Shown piece after piece: positions 1 to 49,720 of a DNA stretch of 58,853 bases (its first letter is position 1; each line of letters begins with the position of its first letter). Below the pieces are notes generated by a model, which worked only from the letters and a program-made list of their open reading frames with translations, was not told the DNA's origin and ran no database searches. The DNA comes from Basidiobolus ranarum. Lineage: Eukaryota. The stretch covers positions 1-58,853 of the forward strand of contig JASJQH010006884.1 in the NCBI GenBank assembly GCA_040143965.1, read 5' to 3'. The position numbers and the translations under genes were made by a program.

Positions 1-573
1 TTCTTGATTTCTTCCAACTCCAAAGCATATCTTGAAAGACAAAGTTAGCGTCACTATTTAATAAACAGTGGCCAATACGAATCTAGAGATTTACCTGGTA
101 GGCATGATGTGGTTGTAGTTGACAACCTTGATGAAAGGCTTGACCTTGGAGCGCTTGGAGATACGCTTCTTACCCATGGACTTGTTCACCTTAAGGGGAT
201 ATCTTTCAACACCAGCGACGATGGCATGACCATAGTTACGTTCCTTGGTACCTTCATCGAAATGTAAAAACAAAAAAGCAAAAATCAAGCATATAGGTCA
301 TTTAAATCTTTGAGAAGCAGTTGGGTTGGCATATGGTGCAATTCAGAAATAAATCAATATAAAATAAGGCTTTCAGACAATTAGAATTGATTGGTATTTT
401 TAACAACTACGACTTTCTTGCCAGCATAACGGCCTTGGAGAACGATAGCAACCTACGTTTAGTGGGGAAAAGAAAGTAAATGTTAATTTTATGTGTTCTC
501 TTCATGTATTTAATGGATGGATGCCACTTGAACAACGAGGATTTACCTTGCCTGGTTTGATGAATTTGACCAT
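1..573 (-). CDS. RPL27: 60S ribosomal protein eL27 (3' end runs off the window); includes an AT-AC intron at 264-397
   Basis: Spliced translation [53 protein letters not shown]...[28 protein letters not shown] at 573. Confidence 0.97.
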
Positions 574-944: not shown

Positions 945-2275
945 ATGTCTTTTGACCGTAAATTGGATGAGAAGCTCAATTTTGAGACCAGTGAAAGTGT
1001 CAAAGTAATCTCCAACTTTGATCAACTTGGTCTCAAAGAGGATCTTCTACGTGGTATTTATGCTTATAGTAAGTCTACCAATATCTTATGCATTCAATGG
1101 ATCCACTTATATTTTCGTGTCTAACATTTTCTCAATTTATAGATTTTGAAAAGCCTTCTGCTATCCAGCAACGTGCGATTGCCCCCATTATCAAAGGACG
1201 TGATGTGATTGCCCAAGCCCAATCGGGTACCGGTAAAACTGCCACTTTTTCCATCTCCATTCTTCAATCGGTCGATACCGCGGTTCGTGAAACTCAGGCT
1301 TTAGTTCTTGCCCCTACTCGTGAACTTGCCACCCAAATTCAAAACGTCGTCTTAGCATTAGGAGATTACATGAACGTTCAATGTCACTCTTGCATTGGTG
1401 GTACCAGTGTTGGTGAAGATATTCGTAAACTTGATTATGGACAACACGTTGTTACCGGTACACCAGGAAGAGTTTATGATATGATTCGTAGACGTAATCT
1501 TCGTACGCGTAATATTAAAATGCTCATCTTAGATGAAGCTGATGAACTTCTTAATCGTGGTTTCAAAGATCAAATTTACGATGTATATAGATACTTGCCA
1601 CCCTCTACTCAAGTGGTGTTACTCAGTGCCACACTTCCACACGATGTTCTTGAGCTTACAACCAAATTCATGACTGACCCCATTCGTATTTTGGTCAAAC
1701 GTGATGAGCTTACCCTGGAAGGTATTAAACAATTCTTCGTTGCTGTGGAGAAAGAAGAGTGGAAATTCGATACCCTGTGCGATTTATATGATACTCTAAC
1801 TATCACTCAAGCAGTCATCTTTTGTAACACTAGAAGAAAGGTAGATTGGTTAACTGAGAAGATGAGAGAAGCCAACTTTACTGTCTCATCCATGCACGGA
1901 GAAATGGCTCAAAAAGACAGAGATGCAGTTATGCAAGAATTCCGACAAGGTGCTAGTCGTGTATTGATTACTACCGATATTTGGGCTCGTGGTATTGATG
2001 TTCAGCAAGTCTCGTTAGTTATCAACTATGATCTCCCATCCAATCGTGAGAATTACATTCATCGGTAAGTTTACTCACAATTCATTATATTCATCTATTC
2101 CAAGAGAGAGAAACTAATGGATTTCTTTAGTATTGGTCGTTCCGGAAGATTCGGTCGTAAAGGTGTTGCCATCAATTTTGTTAAAAGTGATGATATCAAG
2201 ATCTTACGCGATATTGAACAATACTACAGTACACAAATCGATGAAATGCCAATGAATGTCACTGATTTGATTTAA
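945..2275 (+). CDS. FAL1: DEAD-box helicase eIF4A-III (exon junction complex core / Fal1)
   Basis: [20 protein letters not shown] motifs; eIF4A-III-type DIWARG; GT-AG introns 1069-1142 and 2065-2130. Confidence 0.95.
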
Positions 2276-2715: not shown

Positions 2716-4363
2716 TTAATTTTCTTCGAGTTCACCAATCTTTTGTCCGACGCGAACTGTTTGGTTTGGCTCAAGCGTAAACTTGAAGTTGCTAGGGGCC
2801 TCGAACACTAATACAACCGTAGATCCAAGTCGGAATCCACCCACTTCATCACCTGAACGAAGTGGATATCCTCCCAAGCGATTGCTGTAGCTTTCGTAGG
2901 ACACTTGGGTGTAAGTGCCCTCAGGAATGATCTCTTTTTGATTTGTACGCAGTTCCTAAGAAGTGGTTCAGCTTATTGTTTGAATGACAAATTATATTAA
3001 GAGAATATTTAGTTACTTTATCAAAGTTGATCTTGATCGAGCCAACATTAGTGGCACCAACGGGAGCCATCGCAAAGAATCCATGACGCCATTGTCCTAA
3101 CAATACCACACGTTCGTTAAGCACAAACAGATTGGAAAGAAGCTTGACCATGTATGGAGAAACTGAGAATAGTTCACCTGAAATGTATAAAAGTAAGTAC
3201 ACTAATTAAATCGATAAAAAGACGCAACCTATAGTTACCGGCAAAGTGACGTCTATTTTGAACTACCCAGTTGGTGGGTGAATGGAAGCGATGATAATCT
3301 CCAGGGGCAAGATAGATGACACAAAAGAAAAGTTGATTTCCTTCTTTCAATGGTGGAATATGATATTGTTCAGACTTGGCGCTCTCGGTCGATTGTGGCG
3401 CAACCTCACCCTCTTCACCCAAAAGTTTATCAAGCGAATAAGTGATTCCATTGACGTTTGCAAACTCCTCCTCATCTGTAATGCTGCCAACTGGAGTATC
3501 TATCCACTCAGTGTCTTTGCCATTACCGTTTCCAATAAAGGCATCAAGGTTATAGGTAAATCCTTTAATTTGCTCAACCATACGGCCTTGGACAACGCCG
3601 AAATGAAGGACTTTACCATCCGATGGACTTACCTAGGTAGTTGCATGCTCTGTTAATTACTTAAAACCTTCAATTCCAACACTTTTCATGAATGATAACG
3701 TACCATAATTCCATCATCAATAGGTCTGGCACCGGGCTTCAAAGTTCGATAAAAAAAGTCACCCAAGTTTGGATAAGATTTGAGGTCAGGGTTCTCCATC
3801 TCCTCCAAGTTACAGCCAAACACCCAACTATACAACTTATATCCAGGTTCTCGGAGCCAAACAGGTAGAGTGACCCCATTAAAGGAACCAAAAAAACGAG
3901 ATAGAGCTCGTAATGGAAGTGCTCCAAAAACATGCACCTTTCATTAAAGTTCAGCCGTTAAAACATGAAAGTGAGGATAACTAATGAATGGGATGTTAAT
4001 ACCTGCCAAGGTCCAACTACAACAGGTTTTTTAAACTCGCTAGACTCTTCTTGCTTCTGGATCTCTCGTTCGCGAATATGTGTATACTGTTGGAATCCAA
4101 TGTATGCCAAACCTAAACCAACAGGAATAGGTGCCCATTCAATTGGTGTATCCTTGATTTTCTGTCGTAATGAGGCTAAACAAGTTGACAAGTTTGTTGA
4201 ATACAAGAGAAAATAAGCAAATTGCTTCATATAAATTGAATATACCGAAATTTTGTTTGGCACTGTATTTTGGTACGGTGGAGTTAAATTTTCGGATTGG
4301 TGTCAAAATGGTATGACGCTTGACAGCTCGAAGGAGCAGGCCCTTATTACTATATCTCAACAT
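2716..4363 (-). CDS. PSD1: Mitochondrial phosphatidylserine decarboxylase proenzyme
   Basis: N-terminal Arg-rich targeting peptide; [22 protein letters not shown] and LGST autocleavage motif; 5 GT-AG introns. Confidence 0.95.
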
Positions 4364-28345: not shown

Positions 28346-28582
28346 GTGTCGGAGGTGTTGAAGGTATTTGGTTCAACAGGAGATGCTCTTGAAAAACAAT
28401 GTACAGCTCGCCTCTTCTACATGACATCATTCTCAAGCATATAGAATAGACCATTGATTGATTTTTATATAAATAATTGAATCCAAGATACACTATATGA
28501 TCTAATAATCTAATCAATATATCCAAATACCAATACCAATCGTATGTTATCCAATCCACTACCTAGCCCTGCTCCGTTGTTG

Positions 28583-45900: not shown

Positions 45901-46051
45901 TCTGTTGCTCTTATTTATTAACCGCATGAAGCTTAGCTCTCTGAGGTACCGATCAACGGGATGACGTGGCGTAGCGAGCACAATATATATAAACAAACAC
46001 AAGTGCGTCCATTATATCGAAGCACACAGATCCATTTAACATAAAGCAAGA

Positions 46052-49000
46052 ATGCCAAATACTCAATGCCCATTCCAAACAGGGGATACCAAGCAAGAGT
46101 CTGTCAAAAGCACCGCCACTGACAACGTCGAAGCTAGAACATCCAACAAAAAGACGAAAGTAATAGTGGTCGCCTTCTCAGGGCAAGATATAGAAAAAGA
46201 TGGAGTTGTCGTCAAGTTGCAGACTAACTGGGATCTCGATGATGTGAAGCAGGATTGTGGAGAGAAACTGAATATTCCTGGATATAACAATATAGAATTC
46301 AGCAATGAAGAAGGAGAAAAGATAACATCATTTGGCCAGCTTATGGATAACGATGAAGTCTATATTCTAGGGAATGATTCTTGCCACCAGGAAATTCCCA
46401 CTCCTCCTACAAGTGTTTTCTTCGGTACACTCCCTCAACTCTTACCGGATATCCCTGGATCTCTTAAACGATTCTATAAAGAATACAAAACTCCGATTCT
46501 TCAAATCTACATGTTCTCAACCAGAGTGATTGCCACAAACCACCCAAGCATTGCAGAGGTGATTTCACAAGAAAGTGAGTACTTCACTAAGAGGGTGACA
46601 GCCCAATCTTCCGAGGTAAAAGCCATAGGTGGCGAAGGACTCTTTACTACAAGCTCAGATGAGAATGTGTGGAAGCTTGCACACAAATTGCTAATCCCTG
46701 CATTCTCCAACTCTGCCATGAAAGGCTATGCAGAGGATATGGGTCATCTGGCTTTAAAATTATCCAACGTATTAGGAAGTTTCAAGCCAGACGAACCCTT
46801 CTTGGTGACTGATTGGATGACTAGAATTACTTTTGAAACCATTGGAATGTTAGGGTTTGGATATGATTTTAAATTACTTGATTCTAAAGATTCTCCACTG
46901 CATCCATTTATTGACGCCATGTCATTTTGCTTGACCGAGTTAAAGACAAGGACAAGTCGTTCTCAATATTGGAAAAAACTACCAATCTGGTCCAATTATA
47001 AATTTGATCGAATGATGGACTTGATGAAAAACACTGTGGACGAAGTGATAGCTCAACGCAAAAAGGACGCCGCTCATAACGAGACATTCACCGATCTTCT
47101 GGCATTCATGCTGGATGCACGCGACAAATCTACAGGAGAGAAATTGACCGACGACGTCATTCGCGACCAAGTGCTGACTTTCTTAATTGCTGGCCATGAG
47201 ACCACCTCAAATACACTTTCCTGGTGCTTGTATCTACTGGTTAGACATCCAGCTGTCATGAAGAAAGTCATTCAAGAGATAGTCAACGCCGGTATCGATG
47301 GTGAAAACCCTCCTACCATCGCTCAAGTATCCCAACTCAAGTACGTCAATCAAGTCTTGAAAGAGACTTTAAGGATGTATCCTCCGGTTGCGGCTGTTCA
47401 GAAATATTGTATCAAGGATTGCATTCTGCCATTTGGATATAAAATTGAAAAAGACACTGCAGCTCAGATCAGCATCTACTCTTTACACTATAATCCAGAT
47501 ATCTGGACTGAACCAGAAGTATTCAATCCTGATAGGTTTAGTTCGGCTGAGGAATCCAAAAGATCCCCTTATGCGTGGCTACCTTTCTCCTCTGGACCTC
47601 GCGCCTGTATTGGTATGCAGTTTTCCTTGCAAGAGGCGAAGATTGTCTTAGCAACCATGTTGAGGAGATTCGAGTTTCATTTGATGGATGACAAACCAGT
47701 CTTCTATACCACCGCCTCTGCTACTCTGAAGCCCGAGAATTTGCACATGAGAGTCACTCCTAGAACCGATCTACCCGAGTCGACCTCTCAGTCACCCTCT
47801 GATTCCTTGACCCCCAAAACTGAGCTGACCGCTCCATTGATCACCAAACAACTTTCATCTGATATCGTACTTCCGAAACTCACAGTTTTGTTTGGAAGTA
47901 ACATGGGGCTTTCAGAGGAGTATGCAAACAAAATTGCCAAGTATGCCGTTGAACTTGGCTTTAAAGAGACAGACATTTCCTCACTAGACGAATGGGATGT
48001 TTTAAAAGCTGGTAGATATGAAGGACAAGAAGTAAAGAGCCCCAATAAAATCCCCATGATTCTCGTAGTCACAAGTACTTACAACGGACTGCCACCAGAT
48101 AATGCAAAAGATTTTGACCGATTCATTAGTGCTAAGAGAGATGAATCCGATAAACCATTAAAAGGTCTTCGTTATACAGTGTTTGGGTGTGGAAACAAGC
48201 AATGGAGAACCTATCAGGTCTTCCCTAGCAAAGTCAATGAGGCTTTGGAACGCCTGGGAGCTGACCAGATATTCCCTGCTGGAGCCGGTGATGCAGATGG
48301 TGATATCGATGCTGCTTTTTCAGAATGGTTGGCTAAATTGTACACCTCGTTATTAACTGACTTGGGAATGGAGGGCTCCGGTTTGAATCTTCTTGGCACT
48401 ACTGCCTCACAAGATCCCACAGTTGGCGTTACCTTACGGTACATCTCTCCTGACTGCTCAAAGGAAGTTGATATTGCTAAATGCAATATCCGCAGTACAC
48501 CTCAAGCCCACATCATTGAAAACAAGGAACTCCAGATAATTGAAAAGAGCCATCGTAGTACGCGTCATCTGGATATTGAATTACCTGAAGGTACTGATTA
48601 TAGCGCCGGTGATCATTTAGAAATTGCTCCTGAAAACCAAGCCAGTCTGGTTGAAGAGATAGCAATCGCGTTTGGCTATGCATTAGATGCAGTCTTTGAA
48701 GTTAAAATAGATAGCTCTACAAACAGTTCGATTAGCTCTCGTTCGCTGGCTGCGGTTATCAAAGGACCATGTACTATCCGAAATGCTCTTACTTATTATG
48801 CAGATCTCTTGGCAGTTCCGTCCCGTCAATTCCTTGGTGTTTGCGTTTCAGCCATTTCTGAAGAATATCCGGAATTGGAAAAAGGATACTTGGAAGGAAT
48901 ATGTCAAACTGGAGAGGAGGGAAATAGAATTTATGCCAAGTTCGCGAAAAAGAATCGAACTTTACTTGATTTGATTCACAATTATCCTATGATCAAAAAG

Positions 49001-49720
49001 CTTGATTATCTGGCTTTCCTCTGCGCTATGCCCGTGATGTCGAAACGTAGGTACTCAATCGCTAGTAGTCCACTGGTAAGTAAGAAAATAGCCCAAATTT
49101 GTGTAGGAGTTGTTGAAGATTCTGGGTTTGAAAACAAAATCTATCCAGGCCTTTGCTCCAGCTTCCTTGCTAATTCTAAACCTGGAGTGGCAATACGTGC
49201 CAACGTAAAACCAGCCAAAGATATATTTCATTTACCAGAGGACCCTACTGTCCCAGTAATCATGGTCTGTGCAGGTACCGGGATTGCTCCTTTCCGAGGT
49301 TTCCTCCAAGAGCGTCAGTATTACGGATTGAAATCCATTGAAAAAGGAGGTAAATCCACTACTCATCTATTTTTTGGATGTCGTTCTCCCGAACAAGATT
49401 ATATCTATCGTGATGAACTTGAAGGATTTGTGAACGATGGTACCCTTGATAAACTACATCTCGCGTGCTCTCGCGTCGGTGGCGCCAAAAAGTATGTCCA
49501 ACACGAACTTCTTTCGTCAGCTTCGTTGGTGTGGGACCTTTTACATAACCAAAAGGGGGCATTCTTTGTCTGCGGATCAGCTTCTGGGATGGCTAAAGAA
49601 GTTGCATCAACACTCATCACAATTATTAAACAAATCGGAGGCATCAACGATCAAGAGGCCAACCAATATTTCCAAAAATTACAAGAAAATGGGAAATATA
49701 ATGAAGATGTTTGGGGCTAA
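46052..49720 (+). CDS. Self-sufficient cytochrome P450/NADPH-P450 reductase fusion (CYP102/CYP505-like) with N-terminal extension; intronless
   Basis: TFLIAGHETTS, ETLR, heme motif PFSSGPRACIG, FMN FGSNMG/STYNG, FAD RRYSIASSP, GTGIAPFRGF, terminal EDVWG. Confidence 0.96.
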   Translation: MPNTQCPFQTGDTKQESVKSTATDNVEARTSNKKTKVIVVAFSGQDIEKDGVVVKLQTNWDLDDVKQDCGEKLNIPGYNNIEFSNEEGEKITSFGQLMDNDEVYILGNDSCHQEIPTPPTSVFFGTLPQLLPDIPGSLKRFYKEYKTPILQIYMFSTRVIATNHPSIAEVISQESEYFTKRVTAQSSEVKAIGGEGLFTTSSDENVWKLAHKLLIPAFSNSAMKGYAEDMGHLALKLSNVLGSFKPDEPFLVTDWMTRITFETIGMLGFGYDFKLLDSKDSPLHPFIDAMSFCLTELKTRTSRSQYWKKLPIWSNYKFDRMMDLMKNTVDEVIAQRKKDAAHNETFTDLLAFMLDARDKSTGEKLTDDVIRDQVLTFLIAGHETTSNTLSWCLYLLVRHPAVMKKVIQEIVNAGIDGENPPTIAQVSQLKYVNQVLKETLRMYPPVAAVQKYCIKDCILPFGYKIEKDTAAQISIYSLHYNPDIWTEPEVFNPDRFSSAEESKRSPYAWLPFSSGPRACIGMQFSLQEAKIVLATMLRRFEFHLMDDKPVFYTTASATLKPENLHMRVTPRTDLPESTSQSPSDSLTPKTELTAPLITKQLSSDIVLPKLTVLFGSNMGLSEEYANKIAKYAVELGFKETDISSLDEWDVLKAGRYEGQEVKSPNKIPMILVVTSTYNGLPPDNAKDFDRFISAKRDESDKPLKGLRYTVFGCGNKQWRTYQVFPSKVNEALERLGADQIFPAGAGDADGDIDAAFSEWLAKLYTSLLTDLGMEGSGLNLLGTTASQDPTVGVTLRYISPDCSKEVDIAKCNIRSTPQAHIIENKELQIIEKSHRSTRHLDIELPEGTDYSAGDHLEIAPENQASLVEEIAIAFGYALDAVFEVKIDSSTNSSISSRSLAAVIKGPCTIRNALTYYADLLAVPSRQFLGVCVSAISEEYPELEKGYLEGICQTGEEGNRIYAKFAKKNRTLLDLIHNYPMIKKLDYLAFLCAMPVMSKRRYSIASSPLVSKKIAQICVGVVEDSGFENKIYPGLCSSFLANSKPGVAIRANVKPAKDIFHLPEDPTVPVIMVCAGTGIAPFRGFLQERQYYGLKSIEKGGKSTTHLFFGCRSPEQDYIYRDELEGFVNDGTLDKLHLACSRVGGAKKYVQHELLSSASLVWDLLHNQKGAFFVCGSASGMAKEVASTLITIIKQIGGINDQEANQYFQKLQENGKYNEDVWG

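Follow-up and report, generated by a model that had tools for sequence, protein, structure and literature searches.

To our knowledge, almost all AT-AC introns are either U12-type introns or, rarely, U2-type introns whose 5' splice site is otherwise good. U12-type introns follow the consensus RTATCCTT at their 5' end, where TCCT at positions +4 to +7 pairs with U11 and U6atac, and TCCTTRAY at the branch site, which lies at a short distance (about 10-20 nt) from the 3' end and is not followed by a pyrimidine tract. AT-AC ends, a phase 1 position and deep conservation are typical of introns of this type. The major spliceosome can also use A at position +1 together with C at the last position, as is known from yeast genetics. 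For the U2-dependent class, called type II, Sheth et al. 2006 (PMC1557818) require that the 5' site be otherwise of good U2 type, with a PWM score of at least 75 with A at +1; that source lists human SCN4A and SCN5A as experimentally known cases and fungal xylanase genes as proposed ones.

We found an AT-AC intron that sits uneasily in both classes. It interrupts the gene for ribosomal protein eL27 (RPL27) of the fungus Basidiobolus ranarum, at the start of a stretch of 58,853 nucleotides (contig JASJQH010006884.1), which is called the window here. With U12-type AT-AC introns it shares the termini and phase 1; it is likewise deeply conserved, and its host genus is rich in minor introns. Unlike these introns, it has neither the ATATCCTT 5' site nor a conserved TCCTTRAY near the 3' end, but a long pyrimidine tract and a candidate branch box 34-69 nt upstream. 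With the type II introns of SCN4A/SCN5A and the xylanase genes it has in common the termini, the pyrimidine tract, the upstream branch region and the absence of a U12 5' motif, and in both cases the borders are conserved over long evolutionary distances. It departs from type II at positions +4 to +6, which read NCA and match the U2 site poorly, and its use of U1, U2 and U6 is presumptive. A literature search, with supplementary tables outside its scope, yielded no description of an AT-AC intron in RPL27, nor of a U12 intron in this gene.

The AT-AC intron of the Basidiobolus eL27 gene

As read from the window sequence, the eL27 gene lies on the minus strand and begins with exon 1 at 547..573 (MVKFIKPGK), followed by an ordinary GT-AG intron of 94 nt at 453..546 (GTAAAT...ACTAAACGTAG) and by exon 2 at 398..452, which terminates in GTT GTT AAA A. 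The AT-AC intron occupies 264..397, starts with ATACCAAT and ends with TTTTTAC. Exon 3 (95..263; AT TTC GAT GAA ... ACC AG) leads to intron 3, again an ordinary GT-AG intron (31..94, 64 nt; GTAAAT...GCTAAC, 13 nt to ...AAG), and of exon 4 the window contains only the start (1..30). The reading frame is open in all four exons, and the coding sequence is intact. The AT-AC intron splits codon 28, within the KOW motif, after its first base and is thus in phase 1, as the initial annotation had stated; its length of 134 nt, noted there as greater than that of most introns in the window, also exceeds the 64-94 nt of four nearby introns verified by their reading frames. Comparisons with introns of the window use these four, since a heuristic search with 156 candidates proved noisy and biased.

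To locate the excision, every donor/acceptor pair between 452 and 95 was tried on the minus strand. Only three junction registers gave VVVKNFDEG together with an open frame, namely 397/264 (AT-AC), 396/263 (TA-CA) and 395/262 (AC-AT), and these represent one and the same excision, which is ambiguous because of an AT repeat at the junction. The 57 in-frame GT-AG or GC-AG pairs in this interval each delete at least nine conserved residues of the KOW motif, and none of them restores VVVKNFDEG. The earlier claims that the intron at 264..397 is obligatory, and that no GT-AG pair recovers eL27, thus withstood an exhaustive trial. Translation through the intron from exon 2 meets a stop after five codons (KNTNQF*), and intron retention would therefore give a nonsense transcript.

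The AT-AC-spliced product is identical, letter for letter, to P0124, a 93-aa partial B. ranarum model, which we found in the 90% cluster of the best match to exon 3; the deposited annotation therefore already uses the 397/264 junction. P0124 matched the Pfam family PF01777 (Ribosomal_L27e) with 68.3 bits (cut-off 24) and the KOW motif at residues 7-32 with 24.5 bits (cut-off 22.3), and this combination of PF01777 with an N-terminal KOW motif identifies the host gene as eL27. A search with exon 3 returned a B. meristosporus eL27 at 98% identity and a B. ranarum eL27 at 96%, with Mortierellaceae proteins next (81-87%). Among the protein matches, the short contigs that resemble transcripts included none from Basidiobolus or Mortierellaceae. 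Basidiobolus carries at least 3-4 eL27 paralogues per species, and KNFDEG was present in all seven eL27 models of the genus that we saw (four of B. meristosporus, three of B. ranarum). Sequence evidence thus confirms a genuine, obligatory spliceosomal AT-AC intron in an expressed-type eL27 gene of Basidiobolus, with a junction that is placed by protein conservation and by deposited gene models.

Two other explanations of the excised segment were considered and rejected. A stwintron (nested GT-AG introns) would demand an excised segment that begins with G, while the three registers begin with A, T or A; moreover, the two letters after ATA differ between lineages (CC, GC, GC and AC), which leaves no common inner donor. 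A transposon with TA duplication was rejected on sequence logic.

Several neighbouring genes were seen as well. An eIF4A-like DEAD-box helicase gene (945-2275, plus strand; Pfam DEAD and Helicase_C) is transcribed away from RPL27, from which about 370 nt separate it, and has two ordinary introns, at 1069-1142 and 2065-2130 (GTAAGT...CTAAC/CTAAT...TAG). A frame of 152 codons at 3174-3632 (minus strand) looks, by translation only, like part of a phosphatidylserine decarboxylase-type gene. At 46040-49720 (plus strand), an uninterrupted frame of 1226 codons fuses a cytochrome P450 with a flavodoxin and an FAD/NAD reductase, a P450-BM3-like self-sufficient architecture that is intron-free in an otherwise intron-rich window.

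The intron position in other fungi and the origin of the AT-AC state

A metagenome scan with exon 3 yielded 80 loci, which were sorted by their junction region. The sequence was continuous, without an intron, in 39 of them; another 29 had an AG acceptor about seven codons upstream of the junction, and two (L008 and L009) had a phase-0 intron one codon downstream of the window position. Ten loci carried an intron exactly at the window position, three of them on the AT-AC side (L001-L003) and seven ending in AG. The three AT-AC loci are the closest relatives (81-85% identity), and the junction peptide of L003 was found exactly in a model from Benniella (Mortierellaceae; P0011). An orthologous intron in relatives, which the initial annotation had proposed to look for, is thus present in three Mortierellaceae loci, with AT-AC ends and at the same phase-1 position. 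With ^ marking the splice junction, the introns of all three end in TATTAC^ATGTCGATGA (TATTAC^ATGTC). L002 has the donor AAAA^ATAGCAAACC and L003 the donor AAAA^ATAGCATACC, in introns of 634 and 648 nt, so that both have the form AAAA^ATAGCA(A/T)ACC...TATTAC^ATGTC; L001 shows the 3' end only, its 5' end lying beyond the contig.

The GT-AG introns of L005, L006, L025-L027 and L060 lie where the window intron lies and share its phase, each splitting the codon behind the conserved Lys after its first base. Their donors read GTATGC (L005), GTATGT (L006), GTTAGT (L025, and by likeness to it L026 and L027) and GTACTT (L060), while the seventh locus, L069, is known from its AG acceptor only. In contrast to the AT-AC intron, these introns have CTAAC/CTAAT branch sites 10-25 nt from YAG and no long T tract. 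Since the ten loci share the position, it is an old one in fungi, and it exists in two states, of which AT-AC is one.

Deposited proteins extend the AT-AC state within the Mortierellaceae. We considered all 34 eL27 models of this family among the best 120 protein matches (P0007-P0119). Ten are clean proteins of 136 aa with KN[VI]D[ED]G, 11 read through after KN into NNPTT, SNPTT, SKPTS, NKPTS or SKSTA, and in the remaining 13 residues are skipped or the N-terminus is replaced. The read-through residues, [NS][NK][PS]T.., back-translate to AT A[AG]Y AA[YR] [CT]CN ACN and thereby point to the same intron 5' end (ATA[AG]YAA..) as in L002 and L003. In total, 24 of the 34 models fail at the AT-AC junction, because gene predictors insist on GT-AG. 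The faulty models read through into the intron, lack VKNVDE, start with a false N-terminus or are fusions, which reach 325 aa.

The Basidiobolus and Mortierellaceae introns share signals along their whole layout. The upstream exon ends in AAAA, and the intron starts with ATANCA, as seen in the window (ATACCAAT, 390..397, minus strand), in L002 (ATAGCAAA) and in L003 (ATAGCATA); the two letters after ATA are CC, GC, GC and AC in four lineages. At the other end, the window and L001-L003 all finish with TTAC followed by AT. This end is preceded in all four introns by a T-rich tract of 31-66 nt with 74-80% pyrimidine, no AG and a sole, terminal AC. In the window, the tract lies at 264..294 (minus strand), is 74% pyrimidine and 65% T, and is free of both AG and AC up to the terminal TTTTAC.

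Upstream of the T tract, both lineages carry an ATGACCT box with the consensus GATTnnnATGACCT. Just 5' of the tract, GATTCGTATGACCTG is invariant in L001-L003, and the candidate branch region of the window, GATTTAAATGACCTA (294..308, minus strand), matches it at 11 of 15 positions. Shuffled sequences gave a match this good in 57 of 5000 cases when mononucleotides were shuffled and in 15 of 1000 when dinucleotides were (p about 0.01); homology of the box between the window and L001-L003 thus appears likely, if not certain. When the window intron was compared with the tails of the Mortierellaceae introns by a looser 16-mer test, the similarity did not reach significance (93-225 of 300 shuffles). 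From the A of TGAC to the intron end, the distance is 34 nt in the window, 37 nt in L001, 69 nt in L002 and 52 nt in L003. As the tract of L002 has no other A before TTTATTAC, the box is the natural branch candidate in that intron.

Further sequence similarities were observed outside these signals. Directly upstream of GATTCGTATGACCTG, the Mortierellaceae introns contain a hairpin (L001:384-414, L002:1882-1912, L003:799-829) with the sequence GTTTCC-TCGCATT-GGAAAC, or TTTCCC...GGGAAA in L001, and with ten predicted pairs, two of which show compensatory changes. The rest of these introns (roughly 550 nt) is unalignable, and the hairpin has no counterpart in the Basidiobolus intron. In intron 3 of the window, AGATTCGTAT at 77-86 (minus strand) equals the first ten letters of the Mortierellaceae intron box, and the GT-AG intron that L005 has at the AT-AC position contains CCAGATTCGT as well (at about 645-654), possibly by chance. 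The 8-mer AGATTCGT, found in L001, L003, L005 and intron 3 of the window, showed no overall enrichment.

How the two lineages came to share the AT-AC state was considered with a tree of 41 chosen full-length eL27 proteins; other exon 3 matches, including truncated or fused models, were left out of it. Basidiobolus and the Mortierellaceae form separate clades (SH-aLRT 95 and 97), Basidiobolus lying nearer to Kickxellomycotina and Glomeromycotina (support 88), in a tree whose backbone is poorly supported. Given the separate clades, there is no sign of gene transfer between Basidiobolus and Mortierellaceae. We consider it probable, on comparative sequence grounds, that the AT-AC state was inherited rather than convergent, because so many details are shared by both introns. 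The alternative, that AT-AC ends arose twice independently from GT-AG, once in Basidiobolus and once in the Mortierellaceae, is less probable but deserves consideration: the clades are separate, the lineages in between are GT-AG or intronless, and the shared box is only modestly significant. However, each of the two origins would require coupled changes, from G to A at the first position and from G to C at the last, and together they would have to account for the sharing of ATANCA, the AAAA exon end, TTAC^AT, a T tract free of AG and internal AC, and the ATGACCT box. An ancestral AT-AC intron that was converted to GT-AG elsewhere would fit a U12-type origin and the known U12-to-U2 route.

Recognition and removal of the intron

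We infer that the intron is most likely a substrate of the major, U2-dependent spliceosome, which would treat it as an atypical type II AT-AC intron. The 3' half of the intron is U2-like: a pyrimidine tract (74-80% pyrimidine and free of AG across the four introns) follows an upstream branch region, whose candidate ATGAC is yUnAy-like, unlike the local CTAAY. An AT 5' end combined with an AC 3' end is seen in the window, L002 and L003, and the AC 3' end in L001. The 5' splice site is the atypical part. Judged by consensus matching, it is not a good U2-type site apart from the A at +1: ATACCA and ATAGCA agree with ATAAGT/ATAAAT at only three of six positions, and the conserved C at +5 and A at +6 stand against G/A and T in the four verified local donors (two GTAAGT, two GTAAAT). 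The 5' end had been described earlier as fitting neither class well, and the counts bear this out, with one of four positions at the U12 TCCT and three of six against local U2 donors.

Removal by the major spliceosome could proceed as follows. The ATGAC box would supply the branch adenosine, and the strong pyrimidine tract could make the first step AG-independent, with the 3' half of the intron being used as it normally is by U2AF and U2. For the second step, the first AC downstream of the branch would be chosen, a choice that is suggested by the zone free of AG and AC that precedes it; AC could serve here because an A-C pair between the first and the last nucleotide would take the place of the usual G-G contact. 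Pairing of the A-rich exon end (AAAA) with the U-rich loop 1 of U5 may help to hold the weak 5' site. The AT-AC ends themselves might have been left over, as a frozen relic, from a U12-type intron whose U12 motifs have since been lost.

The intron could instead be a divergent U12-dependent AT-AC intron, removed by a minor spliceosome that tolerates ATANCA and a weak branch site. This is unlikely, but several features speak for it. The termini, the phase and the deep conservation are those of U12-type introns, and the C at +5 agrees with the U12 consensus. The window intron also contains TGCTTGAT, which matches the U12 branch consensus at six of eight positions. The genus has, moreover, an active minor spliceosome (PMC10639083, PMC11347168): Basidiobolus is credited with the highest density of minor introns of any known fungus, with 249 of them in B. 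meristosporus (Larue and Roy 2023, PMC10639083), and for the same species 237 minor introns are reported together with genes for U11, U12 and U6atac (Olthof et al. 2024, PMC11347168). For the Mortierellaceae, the literature search yielded no report of minor snRNAs. The GT-AG state occurs in lineages that include Dikarya, which are among those said to lack minor snRNAs (PMC10639083), and this distribution would fit a U12-to-U2 conversion.

The splicing signals, however, argue against U12 dependence. ATACCAAT agrees with the U12 5' motif at five of eight positions overall and at one of four at +4 to +7, and the Mortierellaceae sites do no better (four of eight in L002, five of eight in L003), so that TCCT, the part that pairs with U11 and U6atac, is matched at only one or two of four positions across the window, L002 and L003. 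The branch-like CTTGAT motif pointed out in the initial annotation is indeed present at 284..289 (minus strand), within the TGCTTGAT match, and has its A at -22, counted from the 3' end, but it is not conserved: no equivalent is present in L001-L003. What is conserved is the box, at a distance of 34-69 nt from the 3' end, and after it the long pyrimidine tract, a layout that is U2-like. The proposal of a divergent minor-spliceosome substrate made at that stage is therefore not supported by our comparison.

The window as a whole was also surveyed for minor-spliceosome features. Rfam revealed no snRNA genes in it, and we found neither a genuine U12 intron nor a second intron of the AT-AC kind within its bounds. 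RTATCCTT occurs twice, which is below chance; both sites were considered as U12 introns and rejected, as neither is an intron and one lies antisense to the P450-reductase ORF. ATACCAAT is mildly over-represented, with seven occurrences where 3.25 are expected (seven being reached in 4 of 100 shuffles), including a tandem overlap at 28527-28540 (plus strand), and the sites other than that in RPL27 lack an intron context.

A further reading takes the odd signals as marks of a regulated intron, deliberately inefficient or specially recognised, with the box as a regulatory site; eL27 feedback, or a protein or mixed set of snRNPs that binds the box, would be examples. We regard this as improbable on the whole. 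The paralogous introns of L002 and L003 have kept a block of about 55 nt, consisting of the hairpin with its two compensatory pairs and of GATTCGTATGACCTG, amid some 600 nt that are unalignable; part of this block recurs in Basidiobolus, and the stop reached after five codons would turn retention into a nonsense transcript. Against this, folding of the window intron revealed no significant structure (z = +1.45; 187 of 200 shuffled sequences folded equally well or better), Basidiobolus lacks the hairpin, and Rfam searches of the window, of positions 1-1000 at a permissive threshold and of L001-L003, L005 and L006 gave nothing relevant and no hosted snoRNA. A pairing of the box with the 3' junction predicted by RNAalifold was rejected, as it showed no covariation and was no better than in shuffles (100-516 of 1000).

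More speculatively, the arrangement AAAA^ATANCA ... GATTnnnATGACCT ... long U tract ... UUAC^AU might define a distinct and ancient AT-AC subclass. Its recognition, in what seems to us an outside chance, would be neither standard U2- nor U12-type, but for example U1-independent or based on mixed components, and it is equally conjectural that such a subclass would have been kept in eL27 since before the split of Basidiobolus and Mortierellaceae.

The least probable explanation is an artefact, with either the intron ends misassembled or this RPL27 copy dead. It could appeal to the single DNA copy of the Basidiobolus locus and to the several eL27 paralogues of the genus, but it is already close to refuted, since both intron ends would need to be wrong together, the same AT...AC ends recur in three metagenome loci of independent origin, 11 independent genome annotations point to them as well, and the four exons are open, with an exon 3 that is 98% identical to the B. 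meristosporus protein. Two of the events that the initial annotation had named as able to overturn it, assembly error and a dead gene copy, are thus unlikely, given conservation in independent assemblies and an intact coding sequence.

Significance for eL27 and for AT-AC introns

In practical terms, our results are a warning that public Mortierellaceae eL27 models are wrong at the AT-AC junction in 24 of 34 cases. In biological terms, we describe an AT-AC intron that fits neither known class, although every eL27 paralogue seen from two old lineages has retained it, and this in a gene that needs efficient splicing. The intron may serve as a natural test of how little information a 5' splice site has to contain, given a terminal A-C pair and a strong pyrimidine tract. 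It is also a candidate for a "frozen" intermediate of U12-to-U2 intron conversion, which would have persisted in the eL27 genes of Basidiobolus and the Mortierellaceae.
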